Part shown: positions 3,667 to 43,811 of the stretch, one piece after another
How positions within the stretch are numbered: the stretch's first letter is position 1
How the letters are laid out: each line of letters opens with the position of its first letter
From: a virus
Lineage: Duplodnaviria > Heunggongvirae > Uroviricota > Caudoviricetes
Strand: one strand, 5' to 3'
IMG/VR virus record: IMGVR_UViG_2541047944_000002
Location: 1 to 44,087 of that record
DNA: 44,087 nucleotides
Program-made: the position numbers and the translations under genes
Notes under the pieces: generated by a model
The model's input: only the letters and a program-made list of their open reading frames with translations
What the model was told of the DNA's origin: nothing
Databases searched by the model: none

Positions 3667-6600
3667 TCAGATGCTCAGTGCTTCAAGACGACGAAGATCA
3701 AAGTCGTTTAATTCGTCGGTATAACTTTCGGTAATCGGTGCTGGCCAGTTGTTTGTCTCCAGCGCTTCGTTTATCTGGTGTAGCGTCCGGCGATATTCCT
3801 GTCGACCAAGTTCAAGGAGTTCCTGCGAGGCTTCCACGACTGCCACCCAGTGATAGCCAGCATCTTTGTTGACGAAGATCCAGAAAAATTTGTCCAGGTT
3901 TGCCACATCGCAATACATTGCGGCGCTGAGGTGATAATCACGCTCAATAATTTCACGGTGCAGGCGATCTTTAAGTCGTTCCTGCCGCACATAACCGAGG
4001 CTGACTGACTTCACGTCAGCGCAAATGCTTTCGTATGGCAGCCGGATTTCGATATCAGGACGGACCCTGATTTCCAGCCCGGTTTCTTCATCAAACCCGA
4101 AATAGCTGATTTCAGATTTGCGATCCGGGTGGTTGAGTAGCCTTGCTGCATCGGTATTGTTTTGCAGTGCCGCGTGAATATTTTTTGCCTGTTCATACAT
4201 ATCCGGACTGATAAACGTTTTCCCGGCGTTTTCTTCTTGCTGGCGTTTTTGCCAGTCCTCCAGTGTCACCAGTTCCGGGCGAATTTTCCGTGCGATTTCG
4301 GTTAATTGCTCTTTTGTGCCACTGATGTTGTAAGGCAAAGATTTAGCACGTTCTTTTTTTGCCAGTTCTGGATCTACAGTTTCAATTTGATCCAGAAGCT
4401 GCTCCCGTGCTCCACTGGTTTTCAACAGAGGAGGGAGGCTTGCGTTGTATTCTTTAATACAGGCTTTCATTGCTGATGCTGTGTGTTTTTCCCCCTCAGG
4501 AATACGCCGAAATTCCACCGGAAGCGAACCGTAAAGGATGCCTGTTTCTTCGGCCCCAGCACTTACAGACAGTGGCTGTATAAGAGTGCTGTTGTAGCTT
4601 TCGATCCACTCTTTCATCTGCTCTGGTGTCATCAGTGCTGGCAGACTGGCATTGTGTTTTTTAATGATGGCGATCAGTTCGTTAGAAGTAGTAACCACAT
4701 ATTCAGGAACCGGTACCGGAATGGCATATTCATCAGCGAATTTATCCGTTTCCAGAACATAGCTGTGAATGATCCGCCCACGCAGCAGTGCATCACTTTC
4801 CTCGTTCGGAATAGTTCCGGCAATGTGCCGCCCGTGGTAATACATCAGGCTGATACGGGCATCCTTCAGCATCGTGCTGCTTATTCCGTTGGCGGAGTGA
4901 TAAACCTCGTTCGGGAGGTTTTCATAGCGGCCTGGCTCGAAATATGACGGCCACATGATTTCAGTTGCTACAGGAGCTGACGCTTCGCCAGTTTCATCAC
5001 TGCAATTGCGATGCGGATCGCTGTCAGCATTCTCATTGTGCGGATGTTCAGCGCCTTCCATTTTCTCCGGCTCATTTTCCCGAACTTCAACCTGATTCTC
5101 GTCATCGAATGTTTCCTGATATGTTGCGTCGCCCATCACCGCACCACAGTCAGGGCAGTTATCCCCGCCAGACTGACCGCAGGCATTGCAAACTTTTTCC
5201 ACTTCCTGTTGCGCCACTGGTTCAGGCTGTTTCGTTTCTGGCTCGTTTTGTAACGCATTTGGGCTGTTTTGTTCCGCTTTCTGGTCGTTCTGTTCCGATT
5301 CTTGTTGGTTCTGGTTCACTGAATCGCGGGTTTCAATCCCCTTCACCCATTTCGGATCATTCGGGTCGCTAATCCCCTCAACAAATTCTCCGCGAGAGGC
5401 AGCCAGCAATTTGTCGGCATCGACAGGATTTTTGGGCGGAATGGTTTTCCGGGCTTCATGAAGTTCTGCCCGCAGTTTCTGATATTTCGCATCAACAGAA
5501 TTTACCTGTGACTGAGCATCCAGCGGCTGCGTGTCCTGATGATGTTCAGTTGCATCCGGTTCCACTGTTTCAGCCGTTGCCTGTTCATCTGCCATTGCGC
5601 AAGATGGTTGCGGTTTTTCTTCATCATCCTGTTTTTCTTCTTCTGTTACCCGCTGCGGCATCGGGGCAGAGGAGCGACCGCAGGCAATATCCACGATTTC
5701 CGGATCAGGGTTGGCATGATCGGTTTCAGTCAGTACTTTGTTCAGATATTCAGTGACGTGTGCGGGGATAACCTCGATCCCAATTGGTGCTTCTTTTACG
5801 GACGCAACCACGATGGCGCGGGAATAATCCAGCCCGCCAGGCATGGCGATGAATTTGTCGCGGAAAACAGAAAAGGGCGGTTTATTTTCAGCGATAATTT
5901 CCTCGACACGTTTAGCGTGTGCCGGATGAAGGTTATAAATGTCCACGTCCATTGAACGGGCCAGTACGCCAGTGGCTACATCGCGTGCCAGTGACGTCAG
6001 ATCGTGGACGAAACCTTCGCCGCGATCGGTGAGGTTCCCGCCGCCAGCATTAGCACCGGAAGCCGTGCGAGTGATGCGTGAAACACGATTTCCTTTCATC
6101 CACTCTTTTGTCAGCAGACCGCGATCGGTGTAGTCTGCGTCCAGGTATGCTTCGAAAAAAGCAGTCATCAGCCCCAGACTTGAATTGCCTGGATTAGGGA
6201 AAACTTTGTCAGTATCACGAACCAGTCTGTGAAGATCGCGAATCTCCAGCAGGTCGAGCAGGCTGGTTTTGTGGGAAACAGCCAGGGCAGTAACAGCTGG
6301 TAGTTCTTCAGCCCGTGCAATATGTAATGTCTGGAGTTCGTCGCGTGAAACGTGCGTTACCGGTTTTTCGCTGCCGTGTTGAGCAAGCCAGCGAATGGGC
6401 AGCTCTTGGCCAGAAATCGGGAGTAGCATATTCTCCTCAATCTCAGTCATGTCTTCGCCATTAACATTGGTATTGTCAGTGCTGGCTGGTTTGTCCTGCG
6501 CAGAGGATGAGGGCGCGATAAATACCATTGTGATGCCATCTTCCCCGCCTTTTTCGTAACGGTTGCAGAATTCCGTATCAAATACGCCTTCTGGTGGAAG

Positions 6601-6813
6601 GTCATCAACAACGGGCAAATTGACGCGAACAGGTTTTTTAAAGTCATCTTCATCGTAGCCAGCATCGTCAATCGCAACAGCACCACGGGAGATGGCAATG
6701 GATAATTTTTTCGCTTCAGCCCAGTAGAAACCGCCTTTAATACCGAGACGTTTTCTTACTTTGTCATTTTTTGCTTCGTAATACAGTGGGTAAACTTGTT
6801 TATCGGTGCTCAT
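3667..6813 (-). CDS. recE: Exodeoxyribonuclease VIII (RecE)-like, enlarged 1048-aa form
   Basis: Long ORF upstream of recT-like gene; C-terminal nuclease region and Rac-like context; contains acidic low-complexity stretches and a Cys-rich segment ([16 protein letters not shown]). Confidence 0.65.
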
Positions 6814-15669: not shown

Positions 15670-15784
15670 AAACGGTTTGCGGGAAAAGGAGAGTTAAGTA
15701 GAATTGCTGCGGGTGCTTGAGGCTATCTGCCTCAGGCATGAACACCAAAAGGCAGATAGAGAAAAGCCCCAGTTAACATTACGC

Positions 15785-15850
15785 GTCCGGCAAGACGCTT
15801 AACATTAATCTGAGGCTCAATCTATGAACGGCAAATCTAGGTTAGCCTCT
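15785..15850 (-). ncRNA. sok: Putative Sok-like antisense RNA (approximate coordinates)
   Basis: Inferred from hok/mok organisation: antisense partner expected opposite the mok start/SD region; candidate minus-strand TTGCCT-17-TAACCT promoter just right of it. Not directly verifiable by eye. Confidence 0.3.
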
Positions 15851-16036
15851 TACGCGCCGAAAGGCAAGGAGAAGCAGGCTATGAAGCAGCAAAAGGCGAT
15901 GTTAGTCGCCCTGATCGTCATCTGTATTACCGTCATAGTGACGGCACTGGTAACGAGGAAAGACCTCTGCGAGGTACGAATCCGAACCGGCCAGACGGAG
16001 GTCGCTGTCTTCACAGCTTACGAACCTGAGGAGTAA
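15824..16036 (+). CDS. mok: Mok-like in-frame leader ORF of the hok locus
   Basis: 70-codon ORF sharing frame and stop with hok, as for mokC/hokC in K-12 (recalled). Confidence 0.5.
   Translation: MNGKSRLASYAPKGKEKQAMKQQKAMLVALIVICITVIVTALVTRKDLCEVRIRTGQTEVAVFTAYEPEE
15881..16036 (+). CDS. hok: Hok/Gef-family type I toxin
   Basis: MKQQKAMLVALIVICITVIVTALVTRKDLCEVRIRTGQTEVAVFTAYEPEE: 51 aa, single TM helix, near match to recalled HokC/Gef. Confidence 0.8.
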   Translation: MKQQKAMLVALIVICITVIVTALVTRKDLCEVRIRTGQTEVAVFTAYEPEE

Positions 16037-35146: not shown

Positions 35147-36181
35147 ATGTCGAAAAACTGGATGCGTCACTTTGAATTATTGCTTGTTGATGATAAGGGC
35201 GACGGGATAAAAATTTCTGAGCTTAAAGTCACTTTCAATATTCAGAAAATGCCTGCGACCATATTCAATGGATTCGTTGGGAATTTTAAGGTTTATAACC
35301 TGTCCCCTACCACTCAGAACCGGATTATGCAGAAGGAGTTTTCGCGTATACAGGTTATTGCCGGATACAAGGGGCAACCGGATGCAGCAGGTAATTATCC
35401 TGATGAAAACGTTGGTATGATATTCAATGGAGATATCCGTTTTACTGTCACTGGTAAAGATAATGCCACAGACAGTTGGATCATGTTGCAGTGTATTGAC
35501 AGCTGGGAAGGCCATCTGAATGCAAGTGTGAAAACCACAGTGGCAGCTGGCTGGAAGTACAGCGATCTTTTCAGTCTGGGTATGAAATCATTCGAACCAT
35601 ATGGCATCGAATCCGGCGCAGTTCCTGACATGCCGGAAACGGTATTTCCCCGAGGGCGCGTTGTTTATCAAAACACATCAAGGTTGATGAATCATATCGC
35701 AGGGCAGTGTAAAGCTAACTGGTGGTATGAAAATAATCTGGTAAATATTGTTCCTGAAGATAAATATATTGGTGTTGCTACGGTGTTGAATGCTAACACC
35801 GGGCTTATCGGTATGCCACAGCAGACGATGGGAGCTGGCGTAAATGTCAGATGCCTGATTAATCCAAATATTAAGCTCGGTGGGCTTATTCGTCTGGATC
35901 AGGCATCTGTATACCGTGCCTCTTTGAGTAATGACCAGGTAGCGAAATCGCCAGCACGACTGGATGAGTCTGAAAGCGACGGTAATCTCTACGTTAACGG
36001 TCTGCCAGGCATGTCACAGCCTGCCAGCATTAATACTGACGGTGATTACATTGTGGGCAGCATTGATTATACTGGCGACACCCGAGGGCAGGCGTGGTAT
36101 ATGGACCTGCTTTGCCTGGCTAAAGGTGGCAAAGAACTATTGGCAAAAGGCACTTTGGACAAAGTCGGAGATGTAGAGTGA
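35147..36181 (+). CDS. Baseplate hub-like protein (Mu gpP-like position)
   Basis: Gene order. Confidence 0.45.
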   Translation: MSKNWMRHFELLLVDDKGDGIKISELKVTFNIQKMPATIFNGFVGNFKVYNLSPTTQNRIMQKEFSRIQVIAGYKGQPDAAGNYPDENVGMIFNGDIRFTVTGKDNATDSWIMLQCIDSWEGHLNASVKTTVAAGWKYSDLFSLGMKSFEPYGIESGAVPDMPETVFPRGRVVYQNTSRLMNHIAGQCKANWWYENNLVNIVPEDKYIGVATVLNANTGLIGMPQQTMGAGVNVRCLINPNIKLGGLIRLDQASVYRASLSNDQVAKSPARLDESESDGNLYVNGLPGMSQPASINTDGDYIVGSIDYTGDTRGQAWYMDLLCLAKGGKELLAKGTLDKVGDVE

Positions 36182-36513
36182 AAAAAGTATTTTTTTGTTT
36201 ATTCTTGGCCCTGCCGTTAACAGTTTCGGCGGCAACGCAGTGCGGACCATTCCGCTTTGATGCTGGTAATGATGGCCTCATGCACATCAATGGTCAAAAG
36301 CCAGAAACACAAAAAATGACCTTTTTGAAACAAAAAGACGATTTCGATAATGTCATGATGCAATGGATGTTACCTGATCCTAATACTGGACGTTGGTTAG
36401 GTATGGACTACATCAAACGAAACAAAAAAGCGATCCTCAACGTTGAAGTTATCCGCAAAAATATGGACGAGCCTCGGGAGTTCTGGACGTATGATTGCCG
36501 GAAGGTGAAGTGA
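36178..36513 (+). CDS. Secreted hypothetical protein inside tail cluster
   Basis: GTG start overlapping upstream stop (GTGA); signal peptide MKKVFFCLFLALPLTVSA-ATQC; two Cys; no structural role evident. Confidence 0.5.
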   Translation: MKKVFFCLFLALPLTVSAATQCGPFRFDAGNDGLMHINGQKPETQKMTFLKQKDDFDNVMMQWMLPDPNTGRWLGMDYIKRNKKAILNVEVIRKNMDEPREFWTYDCRKVK

Positions 36514-36585
36514 ATTACATTGGCGTCCAGCTTCTGCAGAACAGCATGGATGCGCCGAAAATCATCGGTTCCTTTCCATGCAAAA

Positions 36586-36620
36586 AGATTGTTGATTAAT
36601 CACCCGTAATTATAATGTGA
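36586..36620 (+). promoter_or_regulatory. Sigma70-type promoter TTGTTG-16-TATAAT for the 36653 gene
   Basis: gattgttgattaatcacccgtaattataat: near-consensus -10 with 16-bp spacing, about 30 nt upstream of the ATG. Confidence 0.45.
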
Positions 36621-36652
36621 TACTTCTACTTTCACGATAAGGAATTTGTCGC

Positions 36653-36892
36653 ATGTTCGGATTTGATAAATTAATAACTCCAAAAATCATCAACGTTCTG
36701 TATGGCATCACAATGTTACTTCTGGTTGTTGCCGCCATTATAACGTTTGTTAATGGGAAGGCTGCTGGCGCTTTAGTGCTTTTGTTATGTGCTGTATTTT
36801 GCCGAATATTCTTTGAGTGCATCATGGTTTCATTTAAAAACAATGAGTATCTTCGCCGAATAGCTGAAGCGTTAGAAGCAAACAAGCAGTAA
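36653..36892 (+). CDS. Small two-TM membrane protein inside tail cluster
   Basis: Two hydrophobic helices (ITMLLLVVAAIITFV; ALVLLLCAVFCRIFFECIMV); own promoter and terminator. Confidence 0.55.
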   Translation: MFGFDKLITPKIINVLYGITMLLLVVAAIITFVNGKAAGALVLLLCAVFCRIFFECIMVSFKNNEYLRRIAEALEANKQ

Positions 36893-39256: not shown

Positions 39257-39933
39257 GCAAATACACCGAACTAATCACGAACTACCACGCCACCAAACCT
39301 AAATTTCTTGCGCATGTTGATCTGATGACCCAGCCACTTATTGATGTTGCGGCTGCCACCAGAGGGCTGATTACTGCATTTGATATTGACTCTGCGGTTG
39401 GTGTGCAACTTGACATTCTGGGATTGTGGATCGGACGTAGCCGTGTTGTCAGCCAGCCTATCTCAGGTGTCTATTTCAGCTGGGATACCGACGGGCTTGG
39501 ATATGATCAGGGGGTATGGCAGGGGCCATATGATCCTGATTCTGGATACATGTATCTCAGCGATGAAACTTATCGTGTCATTCTTAAAGCGAAGATTGCG
39601 ATTAATAACTGGGACGGACGGAATGATTCGCTTCCGGCAATTCTTGACGCGGCAACAGCAGGATCCGGGCTGCGAATGCAGATTGTCGATAACCAGGACA
39701 TGACGATATCGGTCTGGGTCTTTCCTGATACTGATATTTCAGATGTATCGCGTGAGTTAATTGCTGCAATTAAACAGGGATATCTCACAGTAAAAGCCGC
39801 CGGTGTGTGGGCAGGTGGCATTGAAACACCTTCGGTGGAAACCCCATCGGAAGGTTCAAAATTTTTTGGTTTTGATATGGATAACGAATTCATCAGTGGT
39901 TTTGATGTAGGGGCATGGGGAGTATTACTCTGA
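39253..39933 (+). CDS. Tail protein (P2 gpI / Mu gp48-like)
   Basis: Gene order directly upstream of the fibre gene. Confidence 0.5.
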
Positions 39934-40604
39934 TGGCAAAAAATGACTTTAAAGCATTCGCAACGGGTAAAAATGCCAATGTTATGTCGCAGGAGGAATG
40001 GGAAGCGTTGCCTGCGCTTTTATCCGGATTTACAGCAGGGAAAGCATCCAGTGCGCAAGTCAATAAGGTTATTCGGCAGGCCAGCTTTATTGCTGCAGCT
40101 CTGGCCCAGTTTGTAAGTGACAAAACGCAACGGGATGTGCTTGATAATGGTGATCTGCCCGGTTTTGTTGAATTGCTGGGATCGGGGTTTGCTGTTGAAT
40201 ACCTGAGCCGCAAAAATCCGTTTGGCGATATCAAATCGGACGGCACAGTGAAAACGGCTCTCGAAAACCTTGGTTTGGGAGAAGCGGCAAAACGGAATGT
40301 GGGAACTGGGGAAAATCAGATACCTGATATGTCATCATATGCATCAGGTTCAGGCTGGCGAAAAATGCCAGATGGTTCAATTGAACAGTGGGGACGAATT
40401 AGTTTTCCTAGTGAACACGGGCCTGTATCCGCCAATGTTTCATTCCCGATTCCATTTACACAGACACCGGGCATTGTAATTGTGTGCGATGGTGGTTTCG
40501 GGGGCGGGAATATGTGGGGGGCGACTAACTGGAGCACTACCGGCTTCATAGCTCACTGCAATTATGGTCTTGAAGGTGGTGCGTTTTTCGCTAAGGGCTG
40601 GTAA
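39933..40604 (+). CDS. Tail fibre protein: constant N-terminus plus variable C-terminus (current orientation)
   Basis: Contains crossover site at 40258..40283; Gly-rich C-terminus; followed by a tail fibre assembly gene. Confidence 0.65.
40258..40283. other. Left 26-bp invertase crossover site (gix/pix-like) inside the fibre gene
   Basis: ctctcgaaaaccttggtttgggagaa; 20 of 26 match the reverse complement of the right site, 14 contiguous identical. Confidence 0.55.
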
Positions 40605-41047
40605 TGATGAAATATCTGTACGTAAACAACCTGGCATATCCTTACGAACTTCAGTCTCTTTATGTTGAAAAAGGTGAGTGGCCTGAAGAAAAAGGTGTTG
40701 ATATAGACGAAGTAATTTTCAGGGAATATTTCTATGATACACCACCAGAAGGAAAATACAGATGTGTCGGAGAAGATGGACTGCCTGCATGGGTAGATAT
40801 TCCTCCACCAACACGTGAAGAACAAATTGCATCAGCCGAAACTAAAAAGCAGCAATTGATTAATCAGGCCAACGAATACATCAACAGTAAACAATGGCCA
40901 GGTAAAGCATCAATTGGTCGTCTGAAAGGTGAGGAACTGGCGCAATATAATTTGTGGCTGGATTATCTGGACGCACTGGAAATGGTCGATACTTCCAGTG
41001 CGCCAGATATTGAATGGCCTACGCCTCCGGCAGTTCAGGCCAGATGA
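40604..41047 (+). CDS. Tail fibre assembly protein (Tfa / Mu U-like)
   Basis: 147-aa ORF after fibre gene; conserved C-terminal motif shared with the convergent minus-strand paralogue (DYLDALEMVDTSSAPDIEWP vs DYIDAVTATDTSTAPDVIWP). Confidence 0.65.
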   Translation: MMKYLYVNNLAYPYELQSLYVEKGEWPEEKGVDIDEVIFREYFYDTPPEGKYRCVGEDGLPAWVDIPPPTREEQIASAETKKQQLINQANEYINSKQWPGKASIGRLKGEELAQYNLWLDYLDALEMVDTSSAPDIEWPTPPAVQAR

Positions 41048-41612
41048 CATCCGGCGCGGTGCTCGTATCTGTTGCCGTCACCGCGTCAATGTAATCAAGC
41101 ACGGCGTTAAGCCGGGTGGTTTCTGCCTGAGTCAGTTTCCGTCCGGCCTGTAATTTCAGCTGAATCAGACTGATGGAAGCCATTGCAGCATCAATCAGTG
41201 ACTGGCGCTGTGCTTCTGCCGCTTCTACTGCGGCACCGTGTTGTGCCTCAGAATCTGTCACCCATTTCTCACCATCCCATTTATCATATGGCGTTAACGG
41301 TGAAAGCGTGACATAACCGTTTTTGATGGCACCGATATAATCCACTGTAACAGCAGCACCATTTTCAATTGAGTAAACAGTCTCATTGCGATGGTCTTCT
41401 TCATGGCTCCATCCCTTACCTGTAAATACTGCCACTCTTCCCGGAATGTTTTCGCCCGGGTCAATACCAGTGGAACAGGCGGGCATACTTACGCCAGTAT
41501 TAATATATTCATCAGACCAGCCCGTATACTCAGATGTTTCAGCATCATAATAAAAACAACGCATATCGCCCGGCACTGTAGCCAGCCCATTTTCATCAAA
41601 AACAGGTTTCAT
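41019..41612 (-). CDS. Alternative tail fibre assembly protein (Tfa-prime)
   Basis: Convergent paralogue of the Tfa gene within the invertible segment. Confidence 0.65.
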   Translation of the reverse strand: MKPVFDENGLATVPGDMRCFYYDAETSEYTGWSDEYINTGVSMPACSTGIDPGENIPGRVAVFTGKGWSHEEDHRNETVYSIENGAAVTVDYIGAIKNGYVTLSPLTPYDKWDGEKWVTDSEAQHGAAVEAAEAQRQSLIDAAMASISLIQLKLQAGRKLTQAETTRLNAVLDYIDAVTATDTSTAPDVIWPELPEA

Positions 41613-42109
41613 TATTTAGCCCTCACCAGAAAGTTAAATGCAATATTTCGCGGTCTGACAGCAACAAAATTCACACCATCACCCACAGAGTTACTGGTGA
41701 AATTAAATCGTGAAAATCCTGGCTGATTTCCGGCGATACCATCATGAAAGTTAATTGCGTGGCCCGCACCATCGCCTATATTCCCGGCAAACTGAGAAAA
41801 GTTTGTAGCTGCCTGCCAGCTTAATAATTCGCGACCACCGTCTGCACCTCGCCCGTCATCCCAGATACGAATGAAATCACCGCGGGCTTCAGGTAATACC
41901 AGCGAAGGAAACACTTTCGCCAGCACAGGATAATCAGTGGCAGAGAATTTCGCGCCGTTGAACTTCAAAAACACCATACTGGACCAACTGTCGATGACAG
42001 AATTTGGCATTGCAGCGGACGGCCAGAAGAACGGAACGCCAATAGCTGGAGCACCTTCTCCCAAACCAACGTTTAAGAAAATGCAGAGGTAACAGCTAAC
42101 TGGCATCAT
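41612..42109 (-). CDS. Alternative tail fibre variable C-terminal segment (promoterless in this orientation)
   Basis: Reads through the right crossover site in frame (…FLNVGLGEG…, compare …LENLGLGEA… in the expressed fibre); Gly-rich like the expressed C-terminus. Confidence 0.6.
   Translation of the reverse strand: MMPVSCYLCIFLNVGLGEGAPAIGVPFFWPSAAMPNSVIDSWSSMVFLKFNGAKFSATDYPVLAKVFPSLVLPEARGDFIRIWDDGRGADGGRELLSWQAATNFSQFAGNIGDGAGHAINFHDGIAGNQPGFSRFNFTSNSVGDGVNFVAVRPRNIAFNFLVRAK
42056..42081. other. Right 26-bp invertase crossover site (gix/pix-like)
   Basis: ttctcccaaaccaacgtttaagaaaa, imperfect dyad, resembles recalled hix/gix consensus; 55 bp upstream of the invertase gene. Confidence 0.6.
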
Positions 42110-42136
42110 CCCCGGTTTTTATTCAGGGGGATAATC

Positions 42137-42691
42137 ATGCTTATTGGCTATGTACGCGTGTCAACAAATGACCAGAACACCGATTTGCAACGTAATGCAC
42201 TGAACTGCGCGGGATGTGAGCGGATTTTTGAGGATAAAATCAGTGGCACTAAGTCCGACAGACCGGGGCTGAAAAAACTGCTCAGGACATTATCGGCAGG
42301 TGACACTCTGGTTGTCTGGAAGCTGGATCGGCTGGGGCGTAGTATGCGACATCTGGTCATTCTGGTTGAGGAGTTGCGCGAACGAGGCATCAACTTTCGT
42401 AGTCTGACTGATTCAATTGATACCAGCACACCAATGGGACGCTTTTTTTTCCATGTGATGGGTGCCCTGGCTGAAATGGAACGTGAACTGATTGTTGAAC
42501 GAACAAAAGCAGGACTGGAAGCTGCTCGCGCACAGGGACGAATTGGTGGACGACGTCCCAAACTTACACCAGAACAATGGGCACAGGCCGGACGACTAAT
42601 TGCATCAGGAGCTCCTCGCCAGAAGGTGGCGATTATCTATGATGTTGGTGTGTCAACTTTGTATAAGAGGTTTCCGGTCGGAGATAAATGA
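42137..42691 (+). CDS. pin: Serine DNA invertase, Pin/Gin/Hin/Cin family
   Basis: MLIGYVRVSTNDQNTDLQ... with catalytic Ser in the VRVS motif; C-terminal HTH; adjacent to invertible segment. Confidence 0.9.
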   Translation: MLIGYVRVSTNDQNTDLQRNALNCAGCERIFEDKISGTKSDRPGLKKLLRTLSAGDTLVVWKLDRLGRSMRHLVILVEELRERGINFRSLTDSIDTSTPMGRFFFHVMGALAEMERELIVERTKAGLEAARAQGRIGGRRPKLTPEQWAQAGRLIASGAPRQKVAIIYDVGVSTLYKRFPVGDK

Positions 42692-42989
42692 AACCGTAGC
42701 ACGTCGTATGCAAGAACGTGCCACGGCTGGCTGATGGACGTTCGATAGCGCGAGTTTGAATGAAAATCAGCCGGAGATGATTTTACATAATTGCTACGGA
42801 ATTATTCAATACAGGAATTGCTTGTGTCTGCATGGATTGACCTGAAATAGTCCCGAAAATTTCTCTAAAAAACCCGAAAAAAATGGTAACTAATTGAATG
42901 TATTAATATGTAATGGTACGTGTTAGGGATTAAAAGATGAGCATGAATTTATTTAACGCATTGATTCTAAAAATTTTGTTGCTTGTTGA

Positions 42990-43019
42990 CGAAAACAGGA
43001 ATCGTGTTCGGTCTCTTTT
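42990..43019. other. attR core (right copy of att direct repeat)
   Basis: cgaaaacaggaatcgtgttcggtctcttttt; matches 572..601 at about 27 of 30 positions. Confidence 0.5.
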
Positions 43020-43154
43020 TATCTGTTAAAAGCCAGAAGCATTCCCTTCGCTGACTTTATAGTCAACCATAACACACACTCTACTGTCTGAGTCCAGCGT
43101 TTTTTAACATTCTTGTTAAGATTATGTGATCTTTAGCGCGGGAGGAAAATATTG

Positions 43155-43811
43155 ATGAAACAGCCTGCGCCCGTTTATCAGAGAATTGCGGGTCATCAAT
43201 GGCGACATATCTGGCTTTCAGGCGATATACACGGTTGTCTTGAGCAGTTGCGCCGCAAATTATGGCATTGTCGTTTTGATCCGTGGCGAGATTTACTTAT
43301 CTCAGTGGGAGACGTTATCGATCGTGGGCCGCAAAGTTTACGTTGCCTGCAGTTACTGGAACAACATTGGGTTCGTGCGGTAAGAGGCAATCATGAACAG
43401 ATGGCGATGGATGCGCTGGCATCCCGGCAGATGTCTTTATGGTTGATAAATGGCGGCGACTGGTTTATTGCGCTGGCAGATAATCAACAGAAACAAGCGA
43501 AAACGGCGCTGGAAAAATGTCAGCATTTGCCCTTTATTCTTGAATTACACAGTCGCACCGGCAAACATGTTATTGCTCATGCCGATTATCCAGATGATGT
43601 CTATGAATGGCAAAAGGACGTCGATTTGCATCAGGTCTTGTGGAGCCGCTCGCGATTAGGTGAACGCCAAAAAGGGCAGGGAATTGCAGGTGCTGATCAT
43701 TTCTGGTTTGGTCATACACCTTTGCGCCATCGCGTGGATATTGGCAACCTGCATTATATTGATACCGGTGCTGTCTTTGGGGGAGAACTGACTCTTGTGC
43801 AATTGCAATAA
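43155..43811 (+). CDS. pphA: Host serine/threonine protein phosphatase 1 (PphA/PrpA)
   Basis: Metallophosphatase motifs (GDIHG, GDVIDRG, GNHE); sequence recalled as E. coli PphA; GGGAGG RBS. Confidence 0.85.
   Translation: MKQPAPVYQRIAGHQWRHIWLSGDIHGCLEQLRRKLWHCRFDPWRDLLISVGDVIDRGPQSLRCLQLLEQHWVRAVRGNHEQMAMDALASRQMSLWLINGGDWFIALADNQQKQAKTALEKCQHLPFILELHSRTGKHVIAHADYPDDVYEWQKDVDLHQVLWSRSRLGERQKGQGIAGADHFWFGHTPLRHRVDIGNLHYIDTGAVFGGELTLVQLQ

Follow-up and report, generated by a model that had tools for sequence, protein, structure and literature searches.

What does a cassette of two opposed fibre-tip modules, enclosed by inverted 26-bp sites and followed by a recombinase gene, do for the prophage that carries it? 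The window, which is the whole stretch of 44,087 nucleotides that was analysed, carries an apparently complete E. coli prophage that extends from integrase to baseplate and is inserted at sdsR/pphA, and the cassette serves its only tail-fibre gene. A sequence-only reading had described the arrangement as a G-segment-like switch, in which a Pin-family invertase exchanges the receptor-binding end of the fibre, and that interpretation is essentially right. We hold with high confidence that the cassette is a Pin-type site-specific inversion switch for the tail-fibre gene, of the e14 P-segment kind and related to the G/Gin system of Mu and the C/Cin system of P1. It is made up of the following features.

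39933..40604, plus strand: tail-fibre gene as now assembled, 223 aa, consisting of Sc (39933 to ~40271) and SvA (~40272 to 40604).
40258-40283, plus strand: left recombination site, pixL type, inside the fibre reading frame; reads CTCTCGAAAACCTTGGTTTGGGAGAA.
40270..42069: invertible segment, ~1.8 kb from one central dinucleotide to the other.
40604..41047, plus strand: TfaA, tail-fibre assembly chaperone of 147 aa, cognate to SvA; Pfam Caudo_TAP (E 5e-34) and PHROG tail fiber assembly protein.
41019..41612, minus strand: TfaB, alternative chaperone of 197 aa, cognate to SvB; Pfam Caudo_TAP (E 3.5e-27) and PHROG_105.
41612..42067, minus strand: SvB, alternative fibre tip, at present unjoined to Sc; PHROG tail fiber (E 2e-77) and tail collar fiber (E 2e-42).
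42056-42081, minus strand: right recombination site, pixR type; its reverse complement is TTTTCTTAAACGTTGGTTTGGGAGAA.
42068..42109, minus strand: short leader of the minus-strand ORF (MMPVSCYLCIFLNVGLGE), which starts outside the segment and passes through the right site.
42137..42691, plus strand: pin, serine DNA invertase of Pin type, 184 aa; Pfam Resolvase (E 2.5e-52) and HTH_7.
42155..42226, plus strand: putative recombinational (Fis) enhancer, pin nt 19-90, by homology to the P1 cin enhancer.

Both sites are 26 bp long, imperfectly dyad-symmetric, and inverted with respect to each other, as are the sites of the Fis-dependent serine invertases (Hin/Gin/Cin/Pin). They are alike at 21 of 26 positions, with one mismatch in a 19-nt core, and the pair first noticed in the sequence was recovered independently by a repeat finder, whose best inverted repeat of the region has 20-nt arms at 40265-40284 and 42055-42074 that are 95% complementary. 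Searched for at up to 3 mismatches, the 19-nt core occurs exactly twice in the 44-kb window, on opposite strands and each time as one of the two sites, against a chance expectation of 0.02 and with two or more matches in none of 100 shuffles. A multi-site, Min-like system was considered for the window and rejected, as only two sites are present even at this tolerance. Systems of that sort (Min of p15B, the four-variant P2-like prophages, and IMG/VR L010, L062, and L067) have the same type of site and invertase and also shuffle fibre tips, but they contain at least three sites and several tip cassettes, whereas the window contains exactly two sites.

The central dinucleotide is the same in both sites, TT at 40270-71 and AA on the plus strand at 42068-69, with TT in a common register. 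Both sites lie in frame and encode the shared GLGE junction that had been proposed for them, translating as ...NLGLGE... on the plus strand and ...NVGLGE... on the minus strand. Compared with its counterpart in K-12 e14, the left site agrees at all 26 positions and the right site at 25 of 26; 9 related loci share this right-site variant. Alignment to known sites, which had been suggested as a check, brings pix, gix (from the Mu record), and cix (annotated in the P1 record) together under the common pattern TC..AAACCTTGGTTT..GAGAA. From the right site to the ATG of the invertase gene (42137) there is a gap of 55 bp, as first described. It is scarcely conceivable that this inverted repeat arose by chance, or simply reflects the conserved NLGLGE linker, and has no part in recombination. 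A GLGE-type linker does recur in unrelated fibres, such as the repeated NLGLG in the gp92 fibre (9zd7). However, the chance expectation is low, and the repeat continues for 12 nt past the common coding motif, reaching the outer, non-coding half of the right site, and has the gix/cix dyad pattern. The breakpoints of a natural inversion, discussed below, also fall exactly in these sites.

Within the ~1.8-kb segment, Pfam and PHROG matches bear out the description of two modules, each a tip with its Tfa, on opposite strands. The fibre ORF starts with an ATG that overlaps the stop codon of the DUF2612 baseplate gene upstream, and fibre residues 1-120 match PHROG tail fiber proteins (E 2e-70). SvA is matched by Pfam Gp53-like_C over fibre residues 144-211, and PDB matches to the 223-aa fibre include the short tail fibre gp92 (9zd7) and the R2-pyocin fibre knob. 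SvB, part of a minus-strand ORF that spans 41612-42109, was identified through PHROGs and PDB sequence searches and carries motifs of the T4 gp37 type (..VPFFWPS.., ..NIAFNFLVR). Against Pfam, SvB alone gave no match, and the fused fibre matched only Collar, below threshold (E 0.026). The TfaA and TfaB genes are convergent with 3' ends that overlap by 29 nt, and the identities of SvA and TfaA co-vary across related loci.

Because the left site falls within the fibre frame at the conserved ...NLGLGE linker, inversion replaces the C-terminal tip and its chaperone. When the segment is inverted in silico at the common central TT, the frame is kept and the 223-aa fibre becomes a 264-aa fibre (Sc-SvB), the in-frame fusion of the minus-strand ORFs to the fibre that the switch reading entails. 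TfaB then directly follows the new fibre gene, with the stop/start overlap TAATG. The architecture of the fibre host-range switches Mu G and P1 C is present, with a constant N-terminus and alternative in-frame tips that each have their own chaperone, and all five ORFs and both sites of the cassette are intact.

The assignment of the recombinase to the Pin family is upheld by its 96% identity to PinE of the E. coli K-12 prophage e14, and PGAP annotates the homologues as pinE. Identity is about 79-80% to Gin and about 82% to Cin, and residues 1-181 align with the Gin crystal structures 3uj3 and 4m6f (E 3e-94). The nucleophilic serine of the invertases is S9 in Gin and S10 in Hin. In the window Pin, the catalytic residues are S9, R7, R42, D64, R65, and R68, and the invertase-specific residues K46, K47, R50, Q150, R153, and L154 are present as well. 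The latter are equivalent to Hin K47, R48, K51, Q151, R154, and L155, and the residues through which invertases contact Fis or the enhancer are Hin K47, K/R48, and K/R51 together with Q151, R154, and L155 (PMC3798978). A scan for promoters and terminators over 39800-43200 gave counts no higher than the shuffled expectation, with no plus-strand promoter in the 55-bp spacer before pin. One weak hairpin from the same scan, at 42098-42117, was insignificant.

Natural inversion is seen among close homologues whose cassettes are ~94% identical to that of the window; the window itself is a single sequence and for this reason displays only one orientation. In public E. coli genomes, homologous cassettes at a coverage of at least 80% were found in the window orientation in 103 genomes and in the orientation produced in silico in 133. 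The near-isogenic strains L001 and L002 differ over 5877 bp solely by an exact inversion of 1816 bp, and their cassettes are 94% identical to that of the window, with the same sites and a Pin that is 97% identical. Within this pair, the site has a polymorphic base at its inner end that moves with the segment, which places the crossover inside the site. The pair refutes the reading of the inverted repeat as a chance or linker-derived match. Together with the homologues in both orientations, it also answers the concern, raised with the first description, that a single orientation might accompany an inactive invertase. Among related loci in IMG/VR, 53 of 77 have the same plus/minus pair of sites; in the IMG/VR loci, 54-55 nt separate the end of the right site from pin, and each kind of tip module is found on both strands. 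Hundreds of E. coli genomes have this cassette annotated as pinE plus tail-fibre genes, and in culture, inversion of the e14 P segment has been shown to depend on PinE (PMC4272514; PMC12529663).

As to the nearest known system, the switch logic implied by the comparison to a G segment stands, but the relationship does not: it is the e14 P segment, and not the G segment of Mu, that is most closely related. Work on the e14 P segment with Pin, and on the related Gin, Cin, and Hin, goes back to the 1980s. The system is already known, and the cassette carries little weight as a discovery. The P segment (stfP-tfaP / tfaE-stfE / pinE) has the same order, in which Sc|Sv-Tfa is followed by a convergent Tfa'-Sv' with a 29-nt overlap, and it shares the segment length of ~1.8 kb, the position of the right site ~55 nt before pin, and the leader ORF through the right site. 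In contrast, e14 is defective and lies at icd, whereas the cassette of the window sits in an apparently complete prophage at sdsR/pphA. Upstream, the baseplate gene is DUF2612 in the window and ymfQ/DUF2313 in e14, and the N-terminal parts of the two fibres are unrelated save for the last ~25 residues. The tips are only ~40% identical, and the chaperones 64-69%. The insertion at sdsR/pphA and the different tail module therefore indicate the same switch module in a different phage from e14.

Mu G/Gin is like the window in its constant Sc with Sv and Sv', each with a chaperone (U/U'), and in an invertase gene just past the right site. The gix sites have the AAACC..GGTTT core in common with the window sites, but their flanks differ (TTATCCAAAACCTCGGTTTACAGGAA), the G segment is ~3 kb with fibres of ~500 aa as against 1.8 kb and 223/264 aa in the window, and the tail modules are different. 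In P1, cix and the window sites have nearly the same inner half (TTGGTTTAAGAGAA and TTGGTTTGGGAGAA, respectively), but cin lies on the other side with cixL overlapping its 3' end, the segment measures 4.2 kb, and the fibre is ~990 aa long. Hin of Salmonella belongs to the same invertase subclass, but the H segment flips a promoter, with no swap of coding 3' ends and no fibre genes.

Pin dimers would bind the two 26-bp sites, and the bound sites, by analogy with Hin, Gin, and Cin, would come together in a synapse at an enhancer, bound by Fis, within the first 90 bp of pin. Ser9 would cut both sites at the central TT, and a 180-degree rotation and religation would follow. In this way, SvA (a knob of the gp53/pyocin-fibre type) and TfaA would be swapped for SvB (a tip of the collar/gp37 type) and TfaB, and a lysogen population would release two kinds of virion with different receptor specificities. 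That the outcome is host-range switching is suggested by homology to Mu and P1 and by the fact that both variable domains are fibre tips. Dependence on Fis, like the rate of switching in this strain, is inferred. We know of no demonstration of a host-range change for short fibres of the e14 type, and the function of PinE inversion is described as unclear in a cited 2025 paper. In K-12, the tail genes around the e14 switch are gone; the present cassette, by contrast, is a clean example of an e14-type switch in an apparently complete prophage, where the natural role of the switch in changing fibre tips could be tested.

Sequence comparison points to a candidate Fis enhancer in the 5' part of pin, the region in which the first reading had advised looking for one. 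The reference is the enhancer that the P1 GenBank record annotates at cin nt 19-90, with which pin nt 19-90 is colinear and gapless at 78% identity. There are two candidate G-N13-C cores, at 42158-42172 and 42207-42221, with the G and C at their ends conserved across 63 distinct pin genes and also Mu gin. GATTTG and TAATG lie between the candidate cores; the Hin enhancer has ATTTA and TAATG. The exact register of the Fis cores is uncertain because the first candidate reads G..C in pin and gin and G..A in cin. Across the 63 distinct pin genes, synonymous variation is lowest in the first 15 codons (0.14 vs ~0.24), although other stretches are equally low, and third-position identity to gin and cin is not higher within nt 19-90 than outside. 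The region lacks excess synonymous conservation and so provides no independent sequence support for a cis element there.

The leader of the minus-strand ORF invites another reading, which we consider unlikely. The switch may mainly, or additionally, be a phage-defence device of the lysogen, in which the off-fibre tip joined to the 18-aa leader would be a free protein that masks surface receptors against other phages. The leader ORF begins outside the segment, and its ATGATG start follows a Shine-Dalgarno-like GGGGA; every one of the 29 DNA versions among the related loci leaves it open. Its start is shared by StfE and StfE2 of e14, where inversion of the P segment is reported to create the StfE2 chimera and to block adsorption of T2 (PMC12529663), and both tips of the window are domains of the receptor-binding type. 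However, no promoter above chance leads into the leader in the scan of 39800-43200, and leader residues 4-8 vary freely, which leaves little sign of constraint at the protein level. Conservation of the leader could instead stem from its double duty as the outer half of the site and the upstream region of pin. The published claim, moreover, concerns a defective prophage and depends in part on docking models. Since the prophage of the window has a full virion module, the fibre role is the simpler reading. Slightly less likely again is a combination of two coupled outputs, with one tip in the virion fibre and the other, joined to the leader, a free receptor-binding protein that would block competing phages. 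If true, each flip would change host range and exclusion specificity together, and a property claimed so far only for defective e14 would be general for intact Pin-carrying prophages.

Apart from what the tail-fibre switch does, it may be asked whether it still turns. We find it highly improbable that the cassette is a frozen relic, with its sites and genes in place and inversion at an end in this strain, for example with pin unexpressed. The single orientation of the window and the lack of a clear pin promoter over 39800-43200 would agree with such a state, as would related copies of the prophage that have lost the segment and retain a 3' remnant of pin and one site. Nevertheless, the five ORFs, both sites, and all of the catalytic residues are present in the window, and cassettes 94% identical to it, with the same sites and a 97% identical Pin, are inverted between near-isogenic strains. 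Other Pin-family invertases in the same cell can also act in trans (PMC12529663). The copies without the cassette come from three assemblies of strain 8178 and three related mouse isolates, in which an orientation difference within the same lineage had been sought. As the switch has been lost from some copies of the same prophage backbone, it is dispensable. Across the related loci, the whole switch can vanish from the same phage backbone, and tip-plus-chaperone modules are freely exchanged.

The invertible fiber cassette in the window is a Pin/P-segment switch of the e14 type and belongs to the Gin/Cin/Hin/Pin family; e14 is the E. coli K-12 prophage that carries PinE and the P segment. The sequence-only reading had described a G-segment-like invertible tail fiber cassette with a Pin-family invertase, and both the finding and its interpretation hold up, although the system is already known rather than new. 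The fiber under its control is encoded by the only fiber gene of the prophage. The features of the switch are as follows:

39933-40604, plus strand, fiber gene, 223 aa; its ATG and the stop codon of the preceding baseplate gene overlap
40258-40283, plus strand, left crossover site, CTCTCGAAAACCTTGGTTTGGGAGAA
40604-41047, plus strand, first chaperone gene (Caudo_TAP), directly after the fiber gene
41019-41612, minus strand, second chaperone gene (Caudo_TAP)
41612-42109, minus strand, alternative tip ORF, 165 aa
42056-42081, minus strand, right crossover site, TTTTCTTAAACGTTGGTTTGGGAGAA as reverse complement
42068-42109, minus strand, leader of the minus-strand ORF, 18 aa, MMPVSCYLCIFLNVGLGE
42137-42691, plus strand, invertase gene (pin), 184 aa, with Resolvase and HTH_7 domains
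42158-42172, candidate Fis core 1 (G-N13-C)
42207-42221, candidate Fis core 2 (G-N13-C)

Both crossover sites lie where they were first placed and agree at 21 of 26 positions. An independent repeat finder returned 20-nt arms at 40265-40284 and 42055-42074 with 95% complementarity, clearly the top inverted repeat within the 6-kb region. When up to 3 mismatches are allowed, the 19-nt core has exactly 2 matches in the 44-kb window, at the two sites and on opposite strands, against a chance expectation of 0.02 (2 matches in 0 of 100 shuffles). When the two sites are aligned in one register, the central dinucleotide of both is TT, and the invertase ATG (42137) follows the end of the right site by 55 bp, the spacing originally given. 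The left site has the same sequence as the e14 left site of K-12, and the right site differs from its e14 counterpart by 1 base. For comparison with other systems, gix was read off at the ends of the G segment in the Mu record, and annotated features of the P1 record supplied cixL and cixR.

Alignment of the window sites with sites of Mu and P1
Window left site: CTCTCGAAAACCTTGGTTTGGGAGAA
Window right site (reverse complement): TTTTCTTAAACGTTGGTTTGGGAGAA
gix (Mu record): TTATCCAAAACCTCGGTTTACAGGAA
cixL (P1 record): CAATCCTAAACCTTGGTTTAAGAGAA
cixR (reverse complement, P1 record): TTATCCAATACCTTGGTTTAAGAGAA

A core and dyad pattern is common to the window sites, gix, cixL, and cixR, as well as to the e14 pix sites, so the proposed alignment to known sites holds.

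The segment has the content first ascribed to it, with a tip and Caudo_TAP gene on the plus strand (SvA and TfaA, module A) and an alternative pair on the minus strand (SvB and TfaB, module B). The two chaperone genes are convergent and their 3' ends overlap by 29 nt. Residues 1 to 120 of the fiber match phage tail fiber N-terminal families (PHROG, E 2e-70). Its C-terminal part matches Pfam Gp53-like_C and, in the PDB, the distal part of the short tail fiber 9zd7 gp92 (E 3e-5) as well as the R2-pyocin fibers 6ct8 and 6cl6. As a fusion with the constant part, the minus-strand ORF has matches to PHROG tail fiber (E 2e-77) and tail collar fiber (E 2e-42) families, and it has motifs in common with the T4 gp37 tip (..VPFFWPS.. 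and ..NIAFNFLVR). In-silico inversion, made by cutting at the central dinucleotides and flipping 40271-42068, places the constant part in frame with this alternative tip, ten residues (not shown) leading up to the junction and GAPAIGVPFFWPS following it. The in-frame fusion on which the first reading depended thus forms, giving an inverted fiber of 264 aa, and the second chaperone gene then lies directly downstream through an overlapping TAATG stop/start.

The assignment of the invertase to the Pin family is likewise secure: the enzyme shares 96% identity with PinE of K-12 e14, and its residues 1 to 181 align with crystal structures of Gin (3uj3 and 4m6f, E 3e-94). The nucleophile S9 is kept, along with R7, R42, D64, R65, and R68. 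In Hin, K47, K/R48, and K/R51 of helix B, and Q151, R154, and L155 of the DNA-binding domain, are conserved only in Fis/enhancer-dependent invertases (McLean et al., PMC3798978). All of these dependence-specific residues are present in the window protein, as K46, K47, R50, Q150, R153, and L154. The Cin enhancer is annotated at cin nt 19-90 in the P1 record, and the same nucleotides of the window pin (42155-42226) form an ungapped alignment with it (78% identity); their identity to Mu gin is 72%. The G and C ends of both candidate Fis cores are kept in 63 of 63 distinct pin genes and in gin. Between the cores stand GATTTG and TAATG, comparable with the ATTTA/TAATG minor-groove contacts described for the Hin enhancer. 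A Fis enhancer in the 5' part of pin is a reasonable inference from homology and is best treated as a candidate feature, because synonymous positions in this stretch are not conserved above the rest of the pin gene and the first core is not G..C in cin.

The mechanism of the Hin and Gin invertases is established. Together with PMC3798978, it forms the basis of the account given here, and by analogy a Hin/Gin-type process is the best-supported explanation of the window switch. Invertase dimers would bind both sites and join a Fis-bound enhancer in an invertasome on supercoiled DNA. All four strands would be cut at the central 2 bp with Ser-phosphodiester links, and one subunit pair would turn 180 degrees before the ends are religated. 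The identical central dinucleotides that religation requires are present in the window. The outcome would be that the fiber tip and its chaperone are swapped together. Given the fiber-tip nature of both domains and the precedent of Mu and P1, the swap probably changes host range.

Since the window is a single sequence in one orientation, public genomes were used as the test of inversion. With 39900-42750 as query, the window orientation was found in 103 complete E. coli genomes and the in-silico inverted form in 133, counting genomes in which a single place covered 80% or more of the query. Because 63% of the query is segment, coverage this high on one strand requires matching orientation. In strains RIVM_C036204 and RIVM_C029670, the same chromosomal position holds a cassette with 94% identity to that of the window, and the two strains are identical to each other over 5877 bp except for an exact 1816-bp inversion between the sites. 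In this pair the outer halves of the sites remain where they were, whereas the base that differs between the sites at the inner end is carried along by the segment, and the crossover is therefore inside the 26-bp site. Both orientations of homologous cassettes thus exist. In hit tables, the apparently isogenic BH100/BH100N and O157 strains 110 versus 107/109 have the same inversion pattern, and inversion of the e14 segment in K-12 cultures has been shown to depend on pinE (PMC4272514; PMC12529663).

The IMG/VR set consisted of 77 phage or prophage contigs encoding a Pin 86-97% identical to that of the window, 53 of which have the plus/minus site pair. Segments in these loci are 1.5-2.0 kb, and the right site ends 54-55 nt ahead of pin. 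Both kinds of tip module are seen on either strand, the gp53-like tip on the plus strand in 10 loci and the minus strand in 38, and the collar-type tip in 33 and 26, respectively. Modules at least 96% identical to SvA/TfaA occupy the silent position, not joined to the constant part, in loci L015 and L076, and modules 95-98% identical to SvB/TfaB are in the expressed position in, e.g., L002, L007, L028, and L051. Three IMG/VR loci (L010, L062, and L067) have two minus-oriented sites upstream of pin and extra tip cassettes, and are variants of the same switch with at least three sites.

The ORF of the unused tip begins outside the invertible DNA, at ATGATG (42109-42104) with a Shine-Dalgarno-like GGGGA ahead of it, and its leader continues across the right site into the tip that happens to be unused. 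In e14, this leader corresponds to the start of StfE/StfE2, and the chimeric fiber protein StfE2 was reported in 2025 to block adsorption of phage T2 (PMC12529663). By analogy, the switch might additionally set exclusion specificity on the lysogen side, and the leader ORF is open in every related locus (29 DNA versions, 18 peptide variants). We consider this second output improbable, however, as the leader residues vary freely and no promoter above chance was found for the minus-strand ORF. Between the right site and the start of pin, at 42098-42117, is a weak hairpin resembling a terminator, with a T run after it; it does not exceed shuffled expectation, and on the opposite strand it overlaps the leader's Shine-Dalgarno and ATG.

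The switch resides in an apparently complete prophage at sdsR/pphA, where it is the final module ahead of attR. The insertion point of the prophage is the 3' end of sdsR (ryeB)/ryeA, a bidirectional small-RNA locus; Rfam places SdsR and RyeA at 462-606, yebY stands at the left edge of the window, and pphA is at 43152-43811. A core of about 30 bp, GAA(T/A)ACAGGAATCGT(A/G)TTCGGTCT(T/C)TTTTTA, occurs at both 573-605 and 42991-43023, so that the 3' end of sdsR is partly duplicated at attR. The left end encodes integrase and excisionase, and the remaining genes include RecE/RecT-like functions, a repressor region, lysis, terminase, head, sheath and tube, and baseplate. The closest copy in a complete genome is that of E. 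coli TUM1880, at the same locus and 98% identical in the late region. There, module A is the same and module B (window 41300-42054) is swapped for a different tip/chaperone pair, so single modules are exchanged independently. Six mouse-derived assemblies (L087-L092; E. coli 8178, FEA3, DEF10, and DEF2) have the same backbone and locus without the switch. Their homology to the window ends at 40110, inside the constant part, and resumes at 42540, leaving one site-like sequence and about 150 nt from the 3' end of pin; in the gap stand a fixed fiber, a single chaperone, and an acyltransferase gene. The switch is thus a module that can move and be replaced.

Elsewhere in the prophage, 18056-18866 matches isrK, the c4-a1b1 target, and C4 antisense RNA directly upstream of an ORF6N-domain (antirepressor-like) gene, resembling a P1/P7-type C4/ant immunity module within a lambdoid-style early region. 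Two type I toxin-antitoxin RNA elements are found at 2168-2346 and 15711-15886, a RalA antitoxin RNA near the RecE/RecT-like genes and, in the early-right region, a sok-type RNA (hok/sok). The minus-strand gene at 3667-6813 encodes a very long exonuclease VIII/RecE-like protein of 1048 aa with a C-terminal PDDEXK domain; it adjoins a 350-aa RecT, and its TUM1880 counterpart is 886 aa. Within the baseplate module, the product of 36178-36513 has a signal-peptide-like N-terminus and no Pfam match, and carries the annotation STY1065/STY2022 family in a relative, while 36653-36892 encodes a DUF4282 membrane protein; the genes of 36178-36892 may be cargo unrelated to tail assembly.
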